Origin: a virus
Virus record (IMG/VR): IMGVR_UViG_3300048587_000705
Location: 1-64,000 of that record
Reading direction: 5' to 3' (one strand)
Length of the DNA stretch: 64,000 nucleotides
Under the pieces are notes generated by a model, which had not been told where the DNA came from, searched no databases, and saw nothing but the letters and a program-made list of their open reading frames with translations. Made by a program: the position numbers and the translations under genes. Positions 5,852 through 37,500 of this stretch are shown one piece after another; positions within the stretch are counted from its first letter, which is position 1, and the number at the start of each line of letters is the position of its first letter.

Positions 5852-6532
5852 TTACCGTAGAAAGTGGGGGATAAAATCTCCTTGGCAACATCCTACGACA
5901 GGAAGTAATAAATCCCCTTTTTGATCTGGTGAGCCTAATTTTGTCAATTTTTGGTGCCACATTTTGTCCGTTGCTTTTGATGGTTCTACCAGTACATGGT
6001 ACCCGCCCCTTGTCTTGATAATATCGAAACATTCTTTGTTGCCAGTGGATTCAAAAGCTATATCCTTTATATGTCGGTCGTAGTGGGGGTTTGGTATATC
6101 AAAATCAAAATCCACCCTAAAAGTCCTGCTTTTGCTAACCTGAATAGCGTTCAACGATACGGAGTGCGGATTTTGGTACCTATCTTTCCCTATATTGTCT
6201 GCAATCATCTTTAATGTAGCGATTGAAGCTTTTTTAAAGCACCTTGGGTTTGGGTTTATGTATAGGGCAATACTCTCCTCTGGAACCTCTGTGCCGTCTA
6301 TTTCATAACTCCCCAAAGGAACCTCCAATTTTTGTATTTTCTTGAACAACCTATCCTTTGTGGACGTACCCCTTTTGAGCTGCGCCTTGTCCGATTTCAA
6401 TATATTTGTCGAATCATACTTCGAGCGCGCAAAAAGTGAATAGTAAAATTGCTCCGAATCTTTAAGGTTGGGAAGCCAATCTATAAACTCCAATAACTTT
6501 TCTTTGTCCCGTATTATTTTATAAGTACTCAT
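5852..6532 (-). CDS. hypothetical protein, possible AEP (primase-polymerase) fold
   Basis: RVDFDFD, then KTRGGYH, then a distal GD. Confidence 0.6.
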   Translation of the reverse strand: MSTYKIIRDKEKLLEFIDWLPNLKDSEQFYYSLFARSKYDSTNILKSDKAQLKRGTSTKDRLFKKIQKLEVPLGSYEIDGTEVPEESIALYINPNPRCFKKASIATLKMIADNIGKDRYQNPHSVSLNAIQVSKSRTFRVDFDFDIPNPHYDRHIKDIAFESTGNKECFDIIKTRGGYHVLVEPSKATDKMWHQKLTKLGSPDQKGDLLLPVVGCCQGDFIPHFLR

Positions 6533-7637
6533 TTTTTCTTATTTTAAGTTCAATGTTATATATAAAATCTTTATCCACAGATTGTTGCAGATCAGATTTA
6601 TCGTAAAGCTCTTTTAGTTGTTCCGCTTTTTGTGACCACTCGGCTATTATATTTTTTAGGTCTACTTTACCGTTTTTTATATTCAACAGATAATTTCTTT
6701 CCTTTGTCCTATCTACATTTATTTTTTTCTGTACGGGTATTTCCTGTGCCGTCATAATAAGCCTAACAGTGTGGAGGATGTTTTTTCCATCATAATCCTG
6801 ACCATGTTTTTTATTTGTAGCGACCCTATTCTCGTTCCTGTTTTTTAACCATTTTTGGTACTCCCGATACTCTTTACAATGGGAAGAATATTCCTCCCTA
6901 TTCCAGTACATAATACCTTTCCAATCATTGTTTCGGTATTTTTCTATGATAGATGTACGTGGCTCATTGGTATCTACGTCACCTATCCCCCGATATTGTC
7001 TGTCCTCTGACCTTATATTGTCAAATCTATGGTTATCATTTGCCCATTTTATATCGTCGGTATAGAGTTTATAACAATCTCGGAAACTGTCTATTGATGT
7101 AAGCCCTACTTGGGACTGGTCGTAGCCATTGTTTTTTAACCAATCTTTTACTTTAAAGGTTTTTCCCGTATCCCTGTCCACGATCTTTGAAAAATCAATT
7201 ATGTCCTTTCTTTCGGTGCGGGATTTCTCAAAATTGAATTTCTTGTTGAGCCCGGATGCCTTTTTTAGCTGTGTTCGGGCATACCCAGAAAATGTTCCAT
7301 AACACTCCTTTGACAGAAAGTCTTCTTTAAAAGAGCTTATGTACTGCCATTCAGGTGATGTATTCAATATACAGTGGTCGGGCAGGTATAAAAGTTCAAG
7401 TACATTTGGGTTTCCTACCGACACGAGTTCCAAAAAACGTCTCAATTCGTAATAAACCGTATCACTATCCTCATCTATTTGCGGTATGTACTTATTGGAA
7501 AGTATGTCCTTGTTGGATTGAAGAAAAACACCTTTTATATCCACATCTGATACAGTAGTAGATAACCCATAAGCTTGGCTACCGACTATACCACTAAACA
7601 ATATTTTACTACCCTGTGGTAATTTGTTTACTTCCAT
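6519..7637 (-). CDS. Pol-beta-superfamily nucleotidyltransferase (RlaP/NrdC.11-like)
   Basis: GSQAYGLST..SDVDIKGVF, GNPNVLELL, YDGKNILHTVRL. Confidence 0.9.
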   Translation of the reverse strand: MEVNKLPQGSKILFSGIVGSQAYGLSTTVSDVDIKGVFLQSNKDILSNKYIPQIDEDSDTVYYELRRFLELVSVGNPNVLELLYLPDHCILNTSPEWQYISSFKEDFLSKECYGTFSGYARTQLKKASGLNKKFNFEKSRTERKDIIDFSKIVDRDTGKTFKVKDWLKNNGYDQSQVGLTSIDSFRDCYKLYTDDIKWANDNHRFDNIRSEDRQYRGIGDVDTNEPRTSIIEKYRNNDWKGIMYWNREEYSSHCKEYREYQKWLKNRNENRVATNKKHGQDYDGKNILHTVRLIMTAQEIPVQKKINVDRTKERNYLLNIKNGKVDLKNIIAEWSQKAEQLKELYDKSDLQQSVDKDFIYNIELKIRKNEYL

Positions 7638-15497: not shown

Positions 15498-16649
15498 TTA
15501 AAATGGAGTGTTGTCTTTTTCTTCTTCCTCATCATCACCGAAAGCGTCCTTTGGAGAGGTGTTAAACTTGGCGCTGTCGAATATGGGCATTGGGTCTGGC
15601 TGTGTAAAAACAGGTGCCTTTAGGTTGGATACAAAATCTTCTTCTTTTACCTCGGATTTCATTTTTTCCAACTGTTCTTTTGACAAATCCATTTCTTTTA
15701 TAAAGAGATCCCGCGTAAAATCATCAGATTCCCGTGTCTTAGTGACCACATAAAAAAGATTACCCAAGGTATTAAATGAAACTTTTCCTTTACTGTTTGG
15801 TTCGGTAAAATATTTTTCAAGATATTCGTATCTCTCTGGATAGACCGACAGATATTCTGACACCCCTTGTTTAAATGGGTTTGTCTGTATTATAATATAG
15901 GACGCCAACTGCTCCATAAAAGATGAACCAAATATCCAAGAATTGTTGGGACGCATGTCGTTTGACCGTTCTTTGACCGTTGTATGTACCATCCTATTGG
16001 TCTGCGAGAGTAGAATAAAATACAGATTGTTAAATTTTAATTTAAGAAGGTTTATATACTCACTGACTTTTTCTAATACTGCTTGCTTATCTGTGCCTGT
16101 CAGCAACAATAAATGGTCTATACTTATGAGTATTGCATCCCTATCTTTGTGGAGTGTGGCGAAGGTTTCGACCATGTTATAAAATTCATCAGCACTGACA
16201 GGTTCCTGTACCACAAATCTTCTATCGTCCTGTAAATTTTCATAGTATTCTTTTACCTTTAACGCCTCTTCTTCATTAAACTTGTTGAAAAGTATTTCAG
16301 ATTTCTTTTTGTTCAGTAAATTGTGTGTGGATCGCAAGAGGCGGTTTAGCATCTTCATTTCCAAATTAAACTCAAGAGAACAGAAGTTGTCGGCAGTGGG
16401 GTTTACATCTTTACTCATTATCTTTTCTATCATTCTGTAAAGTGTCTCGGATTTCCCTGCGCCGGGCGGGGCACTTATCAAAACAACATCACCCTCGAGA
16501 AGTGACCCTATATGGCAATCTATCATTTCCTCCCCTGTACGTAAAAGTCTTTTTTCTCCGTACTGTATTTTTCTTAGGTCTGCAAAGGCTTCTTTTGCCG
16601 CGATTCCAACTTTTTTTATTCTTTTATCCAATTGGATTTCTTCTGCCAT
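15498..16649 (-). CDS. dnaB: DnaB-like replicative helicase
   Basis: Walker A APPGAGKS, NLEM, IDH, LSQTNR; acidic tail ending PF. Confidence 0.88.
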   Translation of the reverse strand: MAEEIQLDKRIKKVGIAAKEAFADLRKIQYGEKRLLRTGEEMIDCHIGSLLEGDVVLISAPPGAGKSETLYRMIEKIMSKDVNPTADNFCSLEFNLEMKMLNRLLRSTHNLLNKKKSEILFNKFNEEEALKVKEYYENLQDDRRFVVQEPVSADEFYNMVETFATLHKDRDAILISIDHLLLLTGTDKQAVLEKVSEYINLLKLKFNNLYFILLSQTNRMVHTTVKERSNDMRPNNSWIFGSSFMEQLASYIIIQTNPFKQGVSEYLSVYPERYEYLEKYFTEPNSKGKVSFNTLGNLFYVVTKTRESDDFTRDLFIKEMDLSKEQLEKMKSEVKEEDFVSNLKAPVFTQPDPMPIFDSAKFNTSPKDAFGDDEEEEKDNTPF

Positions 16650-18935: not shown

Positions 18936-19101
18936 TTTTGAAAAATTCGTCTGTCAAATATCCGTGCGCCGCCACAAAGAAAAAGGTAGGGAAAATCCAC
19001 AAAAACATCGCCCACCACCTATATATCAATATAGGTAGTATCAGAAGGACTGCCCCTATTGCCAAAAATACAGTCCCTTTTAATTTTCTACTGGTTTTCA
19101 T
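18919..19101 (-). CDS. small membrane protein
   Basis: Two transmembrane segments. Confidence 0.55.
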   Translation of the reverse strand: MKTSRKLKGTVFLAIGAVLLILPILIYRWWAMFLWIFPTFFFVAAHGYLTDEFFKNEKDV

Positions 19102-19423
19102 CCTCTTCTTCTATATATCCCTCGGGCGTTAAATCGCGTACACCGTTTGTAACGTTATAAATTTCATTGCCAATAATCACCTTTTCGGGCGTTATTTGCT
19201 GTATGCCGTTCTCTACATTATATACCTCTGTTGTATTTCCTGTCTGTTTCAGTATTTTGTCCGGCGTCAGGTTCTTTACACCGTTTATAGAGGAATATAT
19301 CTCTATATAGGTAGGTTCCGTTGAATAATCGTGCGTATAAGTCTGTGCCGTTGCTGTGTATGTGGCGGCGAGTGTCAGTATTATTCTTAATAGTTTTTTC
19401 ATGGTTTTTGTAGAAAAGTTCAT
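19088..19423 (-). CDS. secreted protein with three internal repeats
   Basis: Signal peptide MKKLLRIILTLAATYTATA; three E(I/V)Y...NG(V/I)..(L/I)TP(D/E) repeats. Confidence 0.7.
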   Translation of the reverse strand: MNFSTKTMKKLLRIILTLAATYTATAQTYTHDYSTEPTYIEIYSSINGVKNLTPDKILKQTGNTTEVYNVENGIQQITPEKVIIGNEIYNVTNGVRDLTPEGYIEEEDENQ

Positions 19424-19462
19424 TTTTTATTATTGTTCATGTTTCTTGAACACAGTTATTTT

Positions 19463-19690
19463 GTGAACTACACATCCACTAAAGATGAATGTGCTTCGGG
19501 AGGTCGCTGCCTTCTGCAACCAGAACGACTACCGCCCGTTTTTGTTTACCCTGCGAGACAGTCCCTGCCACACAGCAATATTTTTAATATGCAAAACTTG
19601 GTTATCGTAATGCAATGTTTATTTACTTTTAAGGAGTCGCTTACATCCCATCCACAGCAAAGCTGATGAATGGGTTTTACGCTCCGTCAT
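19463..19690 (-). mobile_element. 228-bp non-autonomous IS200/IS605 derivative retaining the omega-RNA region
   Basis: TTTAT flank, then left-end hairpin with AAAA foot; tnpB-like tail IKNIAVWQGLSRRVNKNGR*; right-end hairpin GAAGCACATTCATCTTTAGTGGATGTGTAGTTCAC. Confidence 0.85.
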
Positions 19691-19704
19691 ATAAAAAACC
19701 CCAC

Positions 19705-19905
19705 TCAAACTAAATCGTCTATGTCAATATTGTACTCTTCCAAGAGTTTGTCTATCTTGTCCCACGACTTCTGATAGTCATAGTCGGTGTTCTTAAATTC
19801 GCGCCACCCGTTGTGTACAAGTTCCCATATAAAAAACGCCATGTCGTTGCACTTTGACAGTCTTTTTATCTCTGTCGGGTCATCGCTCTCAAATACTGTC
19901 CTCAT
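19705..19905 (-). CDS. hypothetical protein
   Basis: Packed ORF. Confidence 0.6.
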   Translation of the reverse strand: MRTVFESDDPTEIKRLSKCNDMAFFIWELVHNGWREFKNTDYDYQKSWDKIDKLLEEYNIDIDDLV

Positions 19906-20240: not shown

Positions 20241-20936
20241 TTACATAAACATACCGTTTCTCCAATCTATTGTTTTAAATATGTTTGGTAGTTCTTTTTC
20301 CAGTTCTTCGCCTATTCTTGTAGCTATATCGCGCACTTCTTTCTGTGCATGCTCGTCACATCTAACGTTCAAAAAACCTAATAAGTCTCTGAGTGTTGCT
20401 GTTATGTGTATTGTGGTTTTTGTACACAACGGTAAAATATCCCGAACCGTTTCTTTTGCTACGCCCGCATCCACCATAGCTGTATAAGCCTCTTCTATTC
20501 TAACTAACGCGTCTGAGGCTTTTACTATAGCGTTGTAGGCAGGATGATTAAAATCCCCTACGTATTCCCAACCTGTTTTGTCTACAGATATTGTTCCTAT
20601 AACATCTGTACTACTTTGTCTGTTTGTTGGGTGCTCTTTTCTTAATTCTATGTCTTCAAAACCCAACGGCTCTGAATATCTAAGTGACCACTCTTGCCCG
20701 TTTAATGAGCGATGTCTGAAAATCTGTGCTGAGATGCTTCTACGTGTCTCTACTTTAAAACCATAAGAAATATGTTGTAACGGACTCCAATGGCGATGTT
20801 CCATAAGGTATTTTACAAGCTTTCCATTATCTTCTTTTATTGTACCGTGCCTTGCTATCGCCGCCACTATCTCTTCATTCATTAGTTGGGAGTAACCGTT
20901 TACCCCCACCGTCTTACTTATTAATTCTACTTTCAT
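20241..20936 (-). CDS. thyX: FAD-dependent thymidylate synthase
   Basis: HWSP, QIFRHRS...EWSLRY, RCDEHAQKEVR. Confidence 0.93.
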   Translation of the reverse strand: MKVELISKTVGVNGYSQLMNEEIVAAIARHGTIKEDNGKLVKYLMEHRHWSPLQHISYGFKVETRRSISAQIFRHRSLNGQEWSLRYSEPLGFEDIELRKEHPTNRQSSTDVIGTISVDKTGWEYVGDFNHPAYNAIVKASDALVRIEEAYTAMVDAGVAKETVRDILPLCTKTTIHITATLRDLLGFLNVRCDEHAQKEVRDIATRIGEELEKELPNIFKTIDWRNGMFM

Positions 20937-28505: not shown

Positions 28506-28582
28506 AAATAAGCCACGGAAACACACTCATCGCTTTAGCGTGGGTGTGGGGAAAGTGACTAACCCCCTAATTAATAATAGTA

Positions 28583-28669
28583 CAAATATACAAAAAATTA
28601 TTAGTTAAAAACAAATTGTTAGCAAAAATTTAACATATTTGGTGGTTTAAAACTTATTATGTATATTTG
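28583..28669. promoter_or_regulatory. divergent pair of TATATTTG promoters inside the IS left end
   Basis: Minus-strand box 28583-28590 and plus-strand box 28662-28669, each with a TTTG 20-21 nt upstream. Confidence 0.65.
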
Positions 28670-28680
28670 CATCAGCTATC

Positions 28681-29787
28681 GTGAAATATTCTATAAAAAC
28701 ATATAAATTTAAGTTAAAATTAACCAATATCCAAAAAGAATTGGTTGACGAATACATTAACACTTCAAGATGTTTGTACAACCTTGCACTTGAAACTCGT
28801 TTATATGCTTATTCTTCACATAAAGTTTATTGGAATTATTACGATTTATCTTCACAACTAACAGAACTTAGAAAAGAGTTTGATTGGATTAAAAAATTAC
28901 CGTCAAATACTTGTCAAGATGTTTTAGAACGCCAAGAAAAAGCTTTTAAATCTTTCTTTAAGGGTTCAGGTTTTCCTAAATTTGCTAAAAAAGATAAATA
29001 TAATTCTGTTACTTTTAAAAATGTTAAAACACATACACACAATAGATTAAAAATTGAAAAATTAGGTTCTGTAAAATATTTCAACTCCCGTGAAATGGGG
29101 GGTAAAATACAAAGAGCAACAATTACACGTAAAAACGGAGAATATTTTGTTTCCGTTATGGTACGTACAGATTCAGCCATACCCATCAAAATCAGTCACG
29201 ATAGCTCAAAAATTGGTTTAGATGTTGGTGTGGCTTACTTTTTATCAGATTCTAATGGTAATTTTGTAGAAAATCCTCGTATATTAGAAAAATACTCCAA
29301 ACAACTAAGAATTGAACAAAGTTCCCTTTCACGTAAAAAGAAAGGTTCAAATAACCGTAAAAAACAAAAACTCAAAGTTGCTAAACTACATGAAAAAATA
29401 ACCAATACAAGAAAAGATTTTCAACAAAAATTATCAACTGAGATAACCAATCAGAATGATATAATAATAGTTGAAGATATCAAACCATCTAAGATGTTAA
29501 ATAGTAAGTATCTAAATAAACAGATTTCAGATGCTTCTTGGAGTAGTTTTTTATCTATGTTGGAGTATAAATGTAAAGCTAAAGGTAAGATATTTGAAAA
29601 AATAAACCCTGCCTATACTTCTCAAACTTGCAATGCTTGTGGCATTATTGATAAAAAATCTCGTATTTCACAATCAGAATTTGTTTGTATTTCTTGTGGA
29701 AATATAGATAATGCAGACCAAAACGCTGCAAAAAACATACTTGGTAAGGGCATTACCAGTCTCCGCAAACGTAAGGCGTTAGCCTAA
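28681..29787 (+). CDS. tnpB: RNA-guided endonuclease TnpB (canonical)
   Basis: N-terminal HTH; GLDVG, VEDI, CNAC/CISC zinc ribbon, NADQNAAKNI. Confidence 0.95.
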   Translation: MKYSIKTYKFKLKLTNIQKELVDEYINTSRCLYNLALETRLYAYSSHKVYWNYYDLSSQLTELRKEFDWIKKLPSNTCQDVLERQEKAFKSFFKGSGFPKFAKKDKYNSVTFKNVKTHTHNRLKIEKLGSVKYFNSREMGGKIQRATITRKNGEYFVSVMVRTDSAIPIKISHDSSKIGLDVGVAYFLSDSNGNFVENPRILEKYSKQLRIEQSSLSRKKKGSNNRKKQKLKVAKLHEKITNTRKDFQQKLSTEITNQNDIIIVEDIKPSKMLNSKYLNKQISDASWSSFLSMLEYKCKAKGKIFEKINPAYTSQTCNACGIIDKKSRISQSEFVCISCGNIDNADQNAAKNILGKGITSLRKRKALA

Positions 29788-29830
29788 GCGTTGGAGAAGA
29801 ATCCCACCTAATCTTTAGTTGGTGGGAGTG

Positions 29831-30070
29831 TCAATCCTTAAACTCTTTTATACAAGCTTCAACAAATTCTTTTGACAATGCTCTACCATCGCCCTCAAAG
29901 AACTCTACCTGTTTTTCTTTTTCACCTTTGTGGAATGCTTCGGATATAAGCCTTATATATTTATCTATGTCAAAAGTATAATAGGTGAAAGGTCTTCCAC
30001 CGCATTCTTCGACAGATACTTTATTCTCTGTGAAACCGTAGTCTTTTAGTTGTTTTCTTGTGAACTTCAT
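29831..30070 (-). CDS. hypothetical protein
   Basis: Stop codon now supplied by the IS right end. Confidence 0.65.
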   Translation of the reverse strand: MKFTRKQLKDYGFTENKVSVEECGGRPFTYYTFDIDKYIRLISEAFHKGEKEKQVEFFEGDGRALSKEFVEACIKEFKD

Positions 30071-34473: not shown

Positions 34474-34569
34474 TTTTGTTTATTTAAAAGTTTATGTGTC
34501 AAAAGTACAAAATAAAAAAGAGACTCACAAGGAATCTCTTTCTTTTTATGAAAATTTTAACGTATTGTT

Positions 34570-37500
34570 TTATTCTTCTTTATTCTCTAATCTATCAACT
34601 ATAAATGAAAATGGGGTGGCCTTGAGGTTACTTGAGTTGAAATACTCATATTGGTGTCTCGCTGTTTTTAATGCGCGTCCACTGTTCAGGTAGTTATATT
34701 GTGAAACACCTGCCATCATTTTAGATAGATATCGGAACCTTTCAGTACTTCCCTTATAAGAACCTTGTTTTATTATATCCCCGGAGAACAAATCCTGTGC
34801 CTTAAATATATTCTGCACTATATTAAGCCCTATGATAGGCGATTCCAAAGTGTCGTTCACCGATGTCACCATCCCTATCTTCTGCACCGAACTTGTCTCG
34901 TTCAATAATCTCTGGTAGAAGTATGCCACTGCCTGCAATGCGTACTGTTCTCCTTCCTCATCATCGTCCGCCGCGCCTACTATCAAATATCCTATCGCCG
35001 CCATAAGCGTCAATACCGATATATCCACCGCCACCCGTTTCAGGTTCCTTCTCTCGGCAACAGAACTGTTCTTCCATTGTTCCTTAAAGGCGCGGATAAA
35101 GTTAGCGGTCCCCATTTTTCTCAGTTCCTGTACCGAGGCGTTCAAAAAGTTCGCGGCGCTTCTGTATGTACCCTCTTCAAGTTCCCCCGTCATGGGATTA
35201 TAGAACTCCGAGCGGGTGCGTCTTGAAATGTTCGTTATAAGGAAACTCCTGTGGGTCAATAATATGGAAAAAAGTGCGTTCCTCTGTGCTGCCACCCTTG
35301 TCTCTGTGGGTATCTGTGTATCGACGTTCAGTATTATCTCGCCCATACGGGTCTGTATCCCCTTTACCTTGTTGTCAAGATACTGTTTGAACCTCTCGTC
35401 CGACATTGGGTTGCCGTCGGTATCTGTGAGCAAGGTCTTTAACTTTTGCTCGTCAAAGGACAGTATTCCATCGTTTACATCTATAAAGTTGTAAAAGGCG
35501 TTTTCTTCCTGTGCCCTCCAAAGGCTGTCTATCTCCTTTTTGGTCTTTCCTTTGTTCAGATCGTTGAAGTTGTTGCGGTTTATAATGGAGCCGTCCACTA
35601 CCCTGTAATCGAACAACGTTCCAAGCGCCACCTCTCCGTACAATGGGAAGTTCGCAAGTTCGTGCAGCCCCATGGAAATTTTGGGCAAAAACCTTGCGGC
35701 GCCCGAGTAGTTACTGTTCTGTAGGCTCTCAAGTGCACTGAATGCACGGAAATGTTGTAGAATAACATTGAGCTTTGATTTTTTGCCCAATTTGTTGAAA
35801 TCCCCCATTGCCTCGGGCATAAGTTTTGTAAGTGCCCTACGACCGAGTTTCAGGGAATCCCTGCCTATGTGCTCACCTACAAGGCTCTCTATCAAAAGCT
35901 GTACCTTTCCCGTTATGGCGGAAGTGATGGGGATAATTGCGTTCAGTCCAAGGTTTCGGAACTTTACGTATTTCACTATGTTCCTTACCACCTTTGCCAC
36001 GTCCACTTTGCCCAAGAACGGTACGTCCACCTCATAAGTCCAAGTCTCCTTTACCCCAAAGAGCGTGTAGTCCATAAAGTTCTGGAACATTTTGTAGGTG
36101 TTGGTGGCGGTCACCTCTTTACCGTTCCCTGTTGTCCTTTTGTCAATGGCGTCGGAAAGTGCCATGATGTCGCCATAGGCGTTGAGCCTTGCGCGTTTCA
36201 AGAACCCTTCTGAATTTCGTGCGGCAATGGACCAGAAAAGGTCGTCTGATACGTCCTCTTGGTTCTCCAATCTGTTGGTGCCTATGTTGGGTATCACCTT
36301 TATACTGTTACCAAACTGTGTTTCCCCTTGTATAAGCTCATCGGGGGTAAAGGTAATAGCTTCCGTCCAAGCCTCCTTTATACTCTGGGCCGAAAGGTTC
36401 TTTGTCAGGTCCTTTGCCCGTTGTATGGTGCCCTTTCTAAATTGTGGCATGGTGTACCTGTTATAGGTGCCGCCTATCTGCATCGCATCGAGCCCCTCGC
36501 TGTTCCATTCGAGCGTTGCCTTGTATGCCTCGTACAGTTTGGGGTCGTTCTTTATTTTTTCAAAATCCTTGTTGTAATATTTGGACAGTTTCGGTTGGTC
36601 GTACCCACCGTAGAACTCTGGGATAAAATTTGGGTTTAGGTCGTCCACACCGCCTATCTCCAAAAAGGATGTATTTGGCGCTATCTCTATATAGTTGTAG
36701 GTTCCTTGTTTTATGGACTCCACCTTGTTCTTTGCGGGGACGTTCGGGTCCTGCATTGCCTGTAGGAACACCCCGTACTGTGACGGTGCAAAACGTTTGT
36801 AGTATGGCAACAACCTTCTTGTAATAAGCTGTTCCACTACCTGTTGCTTTACCCGTATGTCCTCCAAGTCCTGCATCTCCCAACCGTTTTCGTCGAGTAC
36901 GCTGTCGATTGCCTTGTTTGTCTTTTCACCTGTCTTTCCTTCAAGGTATCGGTTCAGAAAATAGATGGCGTCGGACAGCCCCTTTGCGTTGTCGGCGGTC
37001 ATATGTTGGCGGGCATACTCCACCTGCTCGTCCAGCTTCCTGTTTATTTCCTGTGCGCTGTCGTTCTCCTCGATGTTCAGTCCAAGGTCTATCAATATCT
37101 TTCGGTAGCTCTCGTTGGTCGTGGTCTCGGTATCAACGTCACTAAAGGTCTCGCCCGTCTGTTCCTCTATAAGTTTTGACGCCTTTCTATAGGCGTTGGT
37201 GATATCTTCCTGTAGTTTTTTTACCGCGTCCCTTGTAACGGACGGCATACGCTGTACGTCTATCTCGGAAGGGTTGTTCTTGTGCTGGAACTGTTTGAGA
37301 ATTGCCTTTAACGCCTTTCCCTTTGTATCGAGGGTTTCCAATATAGCGTCCACCTCTGCCATATTGTCCCCTGTATACACCTCTGGTGCCGTTATCTTTT
37401 CACGCAGGGACTGGTTCTGTTGCAGGTCGTTCCAGAACTGGTCGGAAAATCCCATGTAAGAGTTCAGTTTCAAAAAACGCATCCCTTCCTCTGGACTTAC

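Follow-up and report, generated by a model that had tools for sequence, protein, structure and literature searches.

The 64,000-nt stretch of viral DNA analysed here (the window) carries, at positions 19463–19690 on the minus strand, a mini-element of 228 nt without genes, which is confirmed by its sequence as a protein-less IS200/IS605 derivative (PATE) and which very likely retains an omega-RNA module. Its boundaries coincide, exact to the nucleotide, with those of a family of elements that share its ends. As a whole, the observations are best explained by a non-autonomous PATE that is mobilised and used in trans by an external TnpA and TnpB, a reading to which we assign a probability of roughly 60%. 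An earlier note on this DNA had placed a protein-less IS200/IS605 element at these coordinates; all of the features that it named are present, well beyond what chance would produce, and the family ends and the TnpB- and TnpA-coding relatives uphold the assignment.

The mini-element occupies a 281-nt spacer separating two co-directional small phage genes, a 66-aa ORF upstream (19705–19905, minus strand) and a 111-aa ORF downstream (19088–19423, minus strand). Between the stop codon of the former and the mini-element lies GTGGGGTTTTTTAT. The 3′ flank directly beyond 19463 reads AAAATAACTGTGTTCAAG, and the ATG of the 111-aa ORF lies 39 nt beyond it. The genes around form a minus-strand replication and nucleotide-metabolism block with ThyX (Thy1; 20241–20936), a DnaB-like helicase (15498–16649) and an RlaP/D5_N-like protein (6519–7637).

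All parts of the mini-element are read on the minus strand. Directly 5′ of the left end (LE) is the target motif TTTAT (19691–19695), the predicted transposon-adjacent motif (TAM) for a cognate TnpB. The LE as a whole (19633–19690) opens with the 12 nt ATGACGGAGCGT (19690–19679), continues with the DNA guide AAAA at the hairpin foot (19678–19675) and an imperfect hairpin, CCCATTCATC-AGCTTTGCT-GTGGATGGG (19674–19647), which fits the family LE consensus, and closes with the conserved GATGTAAGCGACTCC on the 3′ side of that hairpin (19647–19633). The interior comprises an AT-rich stretch with a second small hairpin and then a G+C-richer structured stretch; the hairpin TGCATTAC-GATAACCAA-GTTTTGCA, whose 9-nt loop is conserved in other PATE lineages, is at 19590–19614. 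The right end (RE; 19463–19497) consists of the DNA guide GAAG (19497–19494), the imperfect hairpin CACATTCATC-TTTA-GTGGATGTG (19493–19471), which fits the family RE consensus, and the tail TAGTTCAC (19470–19463), the last four nucleotides of which are the cleavage tetranucleotide TCAC. The predicted folding energy is −73.7 kcal/mol over the 228 nt. There is no direct repeat of the flank and thus no target duplication, and the joint of the empty donor site expected on excision would be GGTTTTTTAT-AAAATAACTG.

Translation and DNA alignment revealed no protein-coding capacity in the mini-element beyond a relic of a TnpB C-terminus at 19529–19618 (TLHYDNQVLHIKNIAVWQGLSRRVNKNGR*), which is not a gene. 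The earlier note had seen this tnpB-tail frame but gave it about 20 codons, whereas it spans 29. A 77-aa plus-strand frame overlapping the mini-element had no Pfam match. No further copy was found in the 64-kb window or in the 98.6-kb record to which it belongs (G000, estimated to be ∼65% complete).

The family was recovered by scanning viral contigs for the hairpin core (CCCATTCATC, 3–12 nt, GTGGATGG), which returned 93 viral loci in two context groups, left ends and right ends. The LE consensus is TTTAT followed across the boundary by AAAACGGAGCGTAAAA, the hairpin and GATGTAAGCGAC, and the RE consensus is GACCTCCCGAAG, the hairpin and GTAGTTCAC up to the boundary, such that a typical member reads TTTAT, boundary, 12 nt, AAAA and hairpin on the left, and GAAG, hairpin, GTAGTTCAC and boundary on the right. 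When left and right ends were paired, 48 bounded elements resulted, whose flanks are unrelated and among which is the mini-element with its 228 nt. These start right after TTTAT and end in GTAGTTCAC, with a subgroup that starts after TTCAT and ends in GTAGTTTAC. The LE of the mini-element is 88–92% identical over ∼50 nt to those of dozens of independent members, both full-length and mini, with E-values down to 1e-16.

The bounded elements fall into size classes of 47–59 nt (one hairpin only, made of the 5′ part of an LE and the 3′ part of an RE), 207–356 nt (protein-less), 822–937 nt (other cargo), 1269–1360 nt (tnpB only) and 1785–1821 nt (tnpB together with a Y1 tnpA, which lies at the LE side on the other strand). 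All of the full-length members (1.27–1.82 kb) carry TnpB and some also Y1 TnpA. Locus L083, for example, encodes between the same ends a Y1 TnpA (L083:5787–6197, minus strand; Pfam Y1_Tnp, 1.9e-34) and a TnpB (L083:6313–7515, plus strand; OrfB_IS605, 9.6e-30; TNB, Cas12f1-like, 1.1e-22; and an HTH domain). The exact LE 20-mer occurs in 13 contigs, mostly Bacteroidota MAGs, of the genera Chitinophaga, Galbibacter, Sphingobacterium, Sediminibacterium, Gracilimonas, Vicingus and others, and the probable host phylum of the phage is therefore Bacteroidota. Judged by its ends, this IS605-type family is common in phage contigs and MAGs of that phylum.

IS608-type elements recognise the cleavage or target tetranucleotide by base pairing with a 4-nt DNA guide that lies at the foot of the hairpin, and Meers et al. 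take covariation of the guide as an argument for active ends (PMC10055086). Such covariation runs through the present family. Left ends preceded by TTAT always have the foot guide AAAA (31 distinct contexts), those preceded by TCAT have GAAA (4 contexts, plus 5 offset by 1 nt), and at right ends GAAG goes with TCAC and AAAG with TTAC. Both pairs of the mini-element, AAAA/TTAT at the LE and GAAG/TCAC at the RE, obey this rule, so that the fit pointed out in the earlier note extends to the family ends at large. Furthermore, the RE stem differs from the family consensus by a compensatory change (CCCAT/ATGGG to CACAT/ATGTG). Both TnpA substrates are intact, and the ends look functional.

The alignment of the last ∼135 nt of the mini-element extends over the tnpB tail and RE of L083 and takes in six further protein-less lineages; for the relic frame, the counterpart at the DNA level is the ‘...NILSGLG...’ tail of TnpB in L083 and other members. 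In full-length relatives this ∼135-nt module overlaps the 3′ end of tnpB and the RE, running to the RE boundary. RNAalifold analysis of eight sequences, the mini-element among them, gave four helices. In the mini-element these are stem A with a GGnA loop (19575–19551), a closing helix CGGG/CCCG (19538–19535 with ∼19497–19500) separated from stem A by the linker ACAAAAAC, stem B enclosed by that helix (19529–19509) and the RE hairpin. Changes on both sides were seen in 13 of the 36 pairs, 93.5% of cells were paired as against 37–45% when partners were slid, and none of 500 shuffles reached the observed covariation score, in a set of only eight sequences and with an RE helix that doubles as a DNA hairpin. 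In stem A, L138 and contigs of two runs, which form the closest lineage, have a compensatory C:G to G:C change at element positions 116/140 and an additional A:U pair at positions 115/141.

Because the mini-element had been part of the first alignment, a second covariance model (R2) was built without it and without L138 and L082. R2 matched 19463–19596 over its full length with 71.7 bits (E ∼1e-19), and across the covariance models the mini-element scored 72–112 bits. The earlier note had proposed a search with omega-RNA models; no Rfam 15 family reached its gathering score anywhere in the window, and between 19200 and 19950 nothing relevant turned up even at E ≤ 10. Weak model matches at 34549–34689 of the window were dismissed as noise on inspection. 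The proposal that a deletion took tnpB and spared the omega-RNA region agrees with both the alignment to L083 and the R2 match. By its position and structure, 19463–19596 corresponds to the omega-RNA of TnpB systems, and it may be made and used as RNA. As the ISDra2 layout would have it, the guide portion should be AAAATAACTGTGTTCAAGAA (19443–19462, minus strand), the flank just 3′ of the RE. A scaffold followed by a guide from the RE flank is the layout described for TnpB omega-RNAs by Meers et al. (PMC10055086).

The protein-less members of at least 207 nt all keep the whole module, as judged by full-length model matches, and the shortest of them (207–215 nt) are essentially LE plus module. 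No bounded element has a length between 60 and 206 nt; they are either 47–59 nt or at least 207 nt long. The size gap and the retention of the module fit selection on the RNA, in a small sample from one search pattern, although the retention could instead reflect descent from few PATE ancestors. The ∼50-nt forms look like decay products, and one contig (L051) has a 51-nt form where related contigs with the same right flank have a 207-nt PATE.

Several lines of evidence together point to movement of the lineage and family. Over 86–122 nt, wastewater and activated-sludge contigs are 100% identical to the RE side of the mini-element, up to a sharp divergence of the flanks at 19462 or 19463; a third contig, which matches 153 nt of the RE side at 96% identity, likewise diverges at 19462/19463. 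These RE-side segments with diverging flanks come from three runs, in which no contig spans both ends of an identical copy. A contig of another study (X1) is ∼93% identical over 19308–19564 and comes from a related phage in which this site is likewise occupied. A JGI metagenome contig (L138) holds an 89%-identical sister copy of element positions 60–228, after another TTTAT and with other flanks; its LE is degenerate and the hairpin lost, a state which, at the sequence level, shows that the lineage decays. Finally, two 356-nt PATEs that are 100% identical to each other (L066:3796–4152 and L066:12020–12376, plus strand) sit in a single viral contig at two TTTAT sites 8.2 kb apart, which as a sequence pattern is direct evidence for transposition of family PATEs within phage genomes.

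The search for a parent IS and an empty site that the earlier note had called for yielded neither, the exact parent having been sought in viral, metagenome and genome collections. The exact empty-site pattern had no match in viral contigs, nor was there an empty-site allele among the run contigs. As for a parent, the exact RE hairpin had no match, a 25-mer of the module none in metagenome contigs and a 22-mer of stem A none in genome and viral contigs; when the pattern was relaxed, the metagenome contigs yielded just the sister PATE L138 and two chance matches. Blastn of the locus and of the element against annotated phage records gave no match. The flanking 111-aa protein has no relatives in viral contigs, and an empty-site comparison via this gene was therefore precluded. 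At most 13% of the sampled words of the 1.1-kb locus occurred in any one run, and the run contigs contained no joint across the element, so that they are uninformative on excision.

Under the favoured reading, the Y1 TnpA of a full-length relative, residing in the host or in a co-infecting phage, would mobilise the mini-element in trans as single-stranded DNA. Transcription of the module, for which read-through from the co-directional gene upstream would be the simplest route, would yield an omega-RNA with the RE-flanking guide AAAATAACTGTGTTCA... Loaded on a cognate TnpB like that of L083, this RNA may direct the cutting of TTTAT-adjacent empty sites in related phage genomes, and this would help the element to be retained or copied by recombination. 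Regarding expression, the single RNA-library contig over the RE side (X17) could represent DNA or read-through and is no proof of transcription. A scan for sigma-70 promoters and terminators was uninformative and found no terminator-like site. The Bacteroidota-type −7 box (TAnnTTTG) is perfect upstream of the module in L056, L066, L082 and L112 but matches at only 7 of 8 positions in the mini-element (AAGTTTTG), and its distance varies; it was dropped as evidence. As family PATEs may point either way with respect to the ORFs beside them, expression by read-through is not general, and orientation was not counted in its favour.

Whether partners for such a mechanism are encoded by the phage itself can be judged from the record. 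G000 has three TnpB genes, two of them identified with Pfam in the window, at 481–1656 and at 28681–29787, and the third a 387-aa open frame outside it (G000 68306–69469, minus strand; locus L136) with ends unrelated to the family. The earlier note, which had counted two nucleases, was thus right for the window and one short for the record; its statement that TnpA is lacking extends to all of G000, in which no Y1 TnpA was found. The TnpB at 28681–29787 lies within a tnpB-only element (28506–29834, plus strand) that reads TTCAT, boundary, 12 nt, GAAA and hairpin on the left and GAAT, hairpin, GAGTGTCAA and boundary on the right; with its GAAA/TCAT pair and different right end, it belongs to a sister group of the family and is similar to L126. 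A third guide loaded in trans on a resident TnpB, as the earlier note envisaged (three guides, two nucleases), would draw on the kinship of this element with the mini-element. The two have the same end architecture, with a foot guide and hairpin after an identical 12-nt offset, as the note had correctly remarked; the 3′ region of the 28681 element folds along broadly similar lines, with a stem, a closed two-stem domain and an RE hairpin; and its TnpB is the resident nearest to the family (36–40% identity). However, family TnpBs are 44–71% identical among themselves (∼27–31% for the outlier L055), while the resident proteins reach only 35–40%, or 24–27% for the TnpB at 481, and on the models that give the mini-element 72–112 bits, no resident 3′ region exceeds 11.8. 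A forced global alignment with the 3′ region of the 28681 element, unrelated in sequence, is only 53% identical, and the TAM and cleavage motifs TTCAT/TCAA differ from TTTAT/TCAC, in keeping with the earlier remark that the ends are unlike those of the resident full elements. Moreover, scaffold recognition by TnpB is usually specific to the cognate protein. Given the low identities and the non-matching 3′ regions, there is no cognate nuclease in the G000 record, and the use of the mini-element RNA as an extra guide by any of the phage's own three TnpBs is improbable. With neither a cognate TnpB nor a TnpA in the record, the mini-element is here an orphan dependent on partners encoded elsewhere, and function in trans is plausible with an external cognate TnpB and unlikely with the residents.

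The lack of cognate proteins in the record is equally what an inert relic would show, that is, a PATE by descent that makes no functional RNA, is no longer mobilised and has kept its module only because the deletion was recent. Its single copy in G000, the sister copy without an LE hairpin and the 47–59-nt single-hairpin remnants, which show that the family decays in place, would all suit such a relic. We consider it unlikely on balance, although well within reason, given that both ends obey the guide/cleavage rule, that the changes in the RE stem and, within the lineage, in stem A are compensatory, that every PATE of at least 207 nt has a complete module, and that RE-side copies of 100% identity with different flanks speak of recent movement of the lineage or its parent. 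Alternatively, the phage might have domesticated the hairpins that separate the 66-aa and 111-aa genes, using them without any TnpB to terminate or attenuate transcription or to stabilise RNA. The highly structured spacer between co-directional genes and the occupied site in the related phage X1 could be taken in this sense, but no terminator-like site was detected, the module is found in either orientation and across many unrelated settings, and its covariation is common to tnpB-linked copies, all of which makes a cis-acting role very improbable.

Among known systems, IS608 (ISHp608) of Helicobacter pylori provides a parallel for the ends, with subterminal imperfect hairpins, a 4-nt foot guide pairing with the cleavage tetranucleotide and insertion 3′ of a TTAC-like motif without duplication. 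Its motif pairs TTAC/AAAG and TCAA/GAAT correspond to TTAT/AAAA and TCAC/GAAG here. The likeness claimed is one of layout; the family's tnpA lies on the opposite strand at the LE side, as in IS605 but not IS608, and the mini-element has no genes. For the RNA, the counterpart is the omega-RNA (reRNA) of ISDra2 TnpB from Deinococcus radiodurans, where the TAM is also the transposon target motif, the same logic as in the mini-element. In the latter, unlike ISDra2, the nuclease gene is deleted and the scaffold is deduced only from covariation. The likeness to ISDra2 is one of position, in that a structured RNA covers the 3′ end of tnpB and the RE and is followed by a guide from the flank (PMC10055086).

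For the guide-RNA-only unit put forward in the earlier note there is a precedent, in that PATEs encoding omega-RNAs for use in trans have already been described (Meers et al., 2023; PMC10055086). The mini-element is therefore a further example of a described kind of element, here in a phage of a probable Bacteroidota host, and not a new category. The ISGst PATE-like elements of Geobacillus stearothermophilus are likewise protein-less IS200/IS605 derivatives that keep LE and RE, often with an omega-RNA, and need TnpA and TnpB in trans, and for them too covariation between guide and TAM/TEM served as the argument for active ends (PMC10055086). In contrast to them, the mini-element belongs to another host phylum and to a phage genome rather than a bacterial chromosome, has other ends, another TAM (TTTAT) and another scaffold, lacks a cognate nuclease in the same genome and is known here from its sequence alone. 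The term PATE was originally used for elements of the haloarchaeon Haloquadratum walsbyi, which are short, palindrome-ended, non-autonomous IS200/IS605 relatives in many copies (PMC3119063); these have archaeal hosts and were described before omega-RNAs were known, and the mini-element is likened to them by description, not by sequence.

With these results, the 281-nt ‘intergenic’ spacer can firmly be annotated as a mobile element whose ends are precisely defined and for which a TAM (TTTAT) and a guide are predicted. They also indicate that Bacteroidota phages frequently carry omega-RNA-retaining PATEs, which until now were known chiefly from bacterial chromosomes. The end consensus, the guide/cleavage covariation rule, the scaffold covariance model and the full-length TnpA/TnpB relatives form a resource with which one can ask whether a guide RNA without a nuclease drives homing between co-infecting phages, and the size gap between the ∼50-nt remnants and the forms of at least 207 nt is a testable hint of selection keeping the RNA module. 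More speculatively, and with a good deal of doubt, guide-RNA-only PATEs might sustain themselves as a lineage of their own in the phages of Bacteroidota, parasitising TnpB-bearing elements at the RNA level. Reduced to LE, omega-RNA module and RE (∼207 nt at the least, several lineages having a conserved GATAACCAA-loop hairpin in addition), they would borrow TnpA and TnpB from co-infecting elements and home into TTTAT sites of competing phages, the nuclease slot being interchangeable (TnpB, GIY-YIG, LAGLIDADG or none).

Three elements with the same LE and RE carry homing-endonuclease-type cargo. A gene with GIY-YIG and NUMOD3 domains (L119:31–750, minus strand) occupies the tnpB slot of an 858-nt element and one with a LAGLIDADG domain (L092:2451–3029, minus strand) that of an 822-nt element, while a 937-nt element has a 189-aa ORF that looks like an HNH protein and had no Pfam match (L091:3835–4404, minus strand). 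The 3′ module is partly retained. Different nucleases may be able to take the same slot in this IS family; alternatively, the elements could have been invaded by homing endonucleases.

The 47–59-nt single-hairpin chimeras (L044, L070/L074, L121/L123, L130, L059 and L095) join the 5′ part of an LE, with AAAA, to the RE tail GTAGTTCAC, leaving a mismatched guide/cleavage pair (AAAA with TCAC), and are probably products of recombination between LE and RE hairpins. A separate 56-nt RE-only remnant follows TTTTAT in L052/L087/L113. In three related viral contigs (L051:1164–1389, L096:50–431 and the first ∼360 nt of L100, minus strand) the right flank of the element is identical, whereas the three left flanks are unrelated to one another; one has a 51-nt single-hairpin form and two have a 207-nt PATE whose RE foot guide is GAAA, not GAAG. 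This arrangement could reflect recombination at the element or mobilisation of flanking DNA.

The hairpin with the 9-nt loop GATAACCAA recurs 5′ of the module in four PATE lineages (the mini-element, L138, L082 and L066) on unrelated stems, namely TGCAnnAC/GTnnTGCA, TTCTAAC/GTTAGAA and ACAAACTTC/GAGTTTGT. A similar hairpin of this type lies inside tnpB, ∼480–600 nt from the RE, in two full-length members (L107 and L087).
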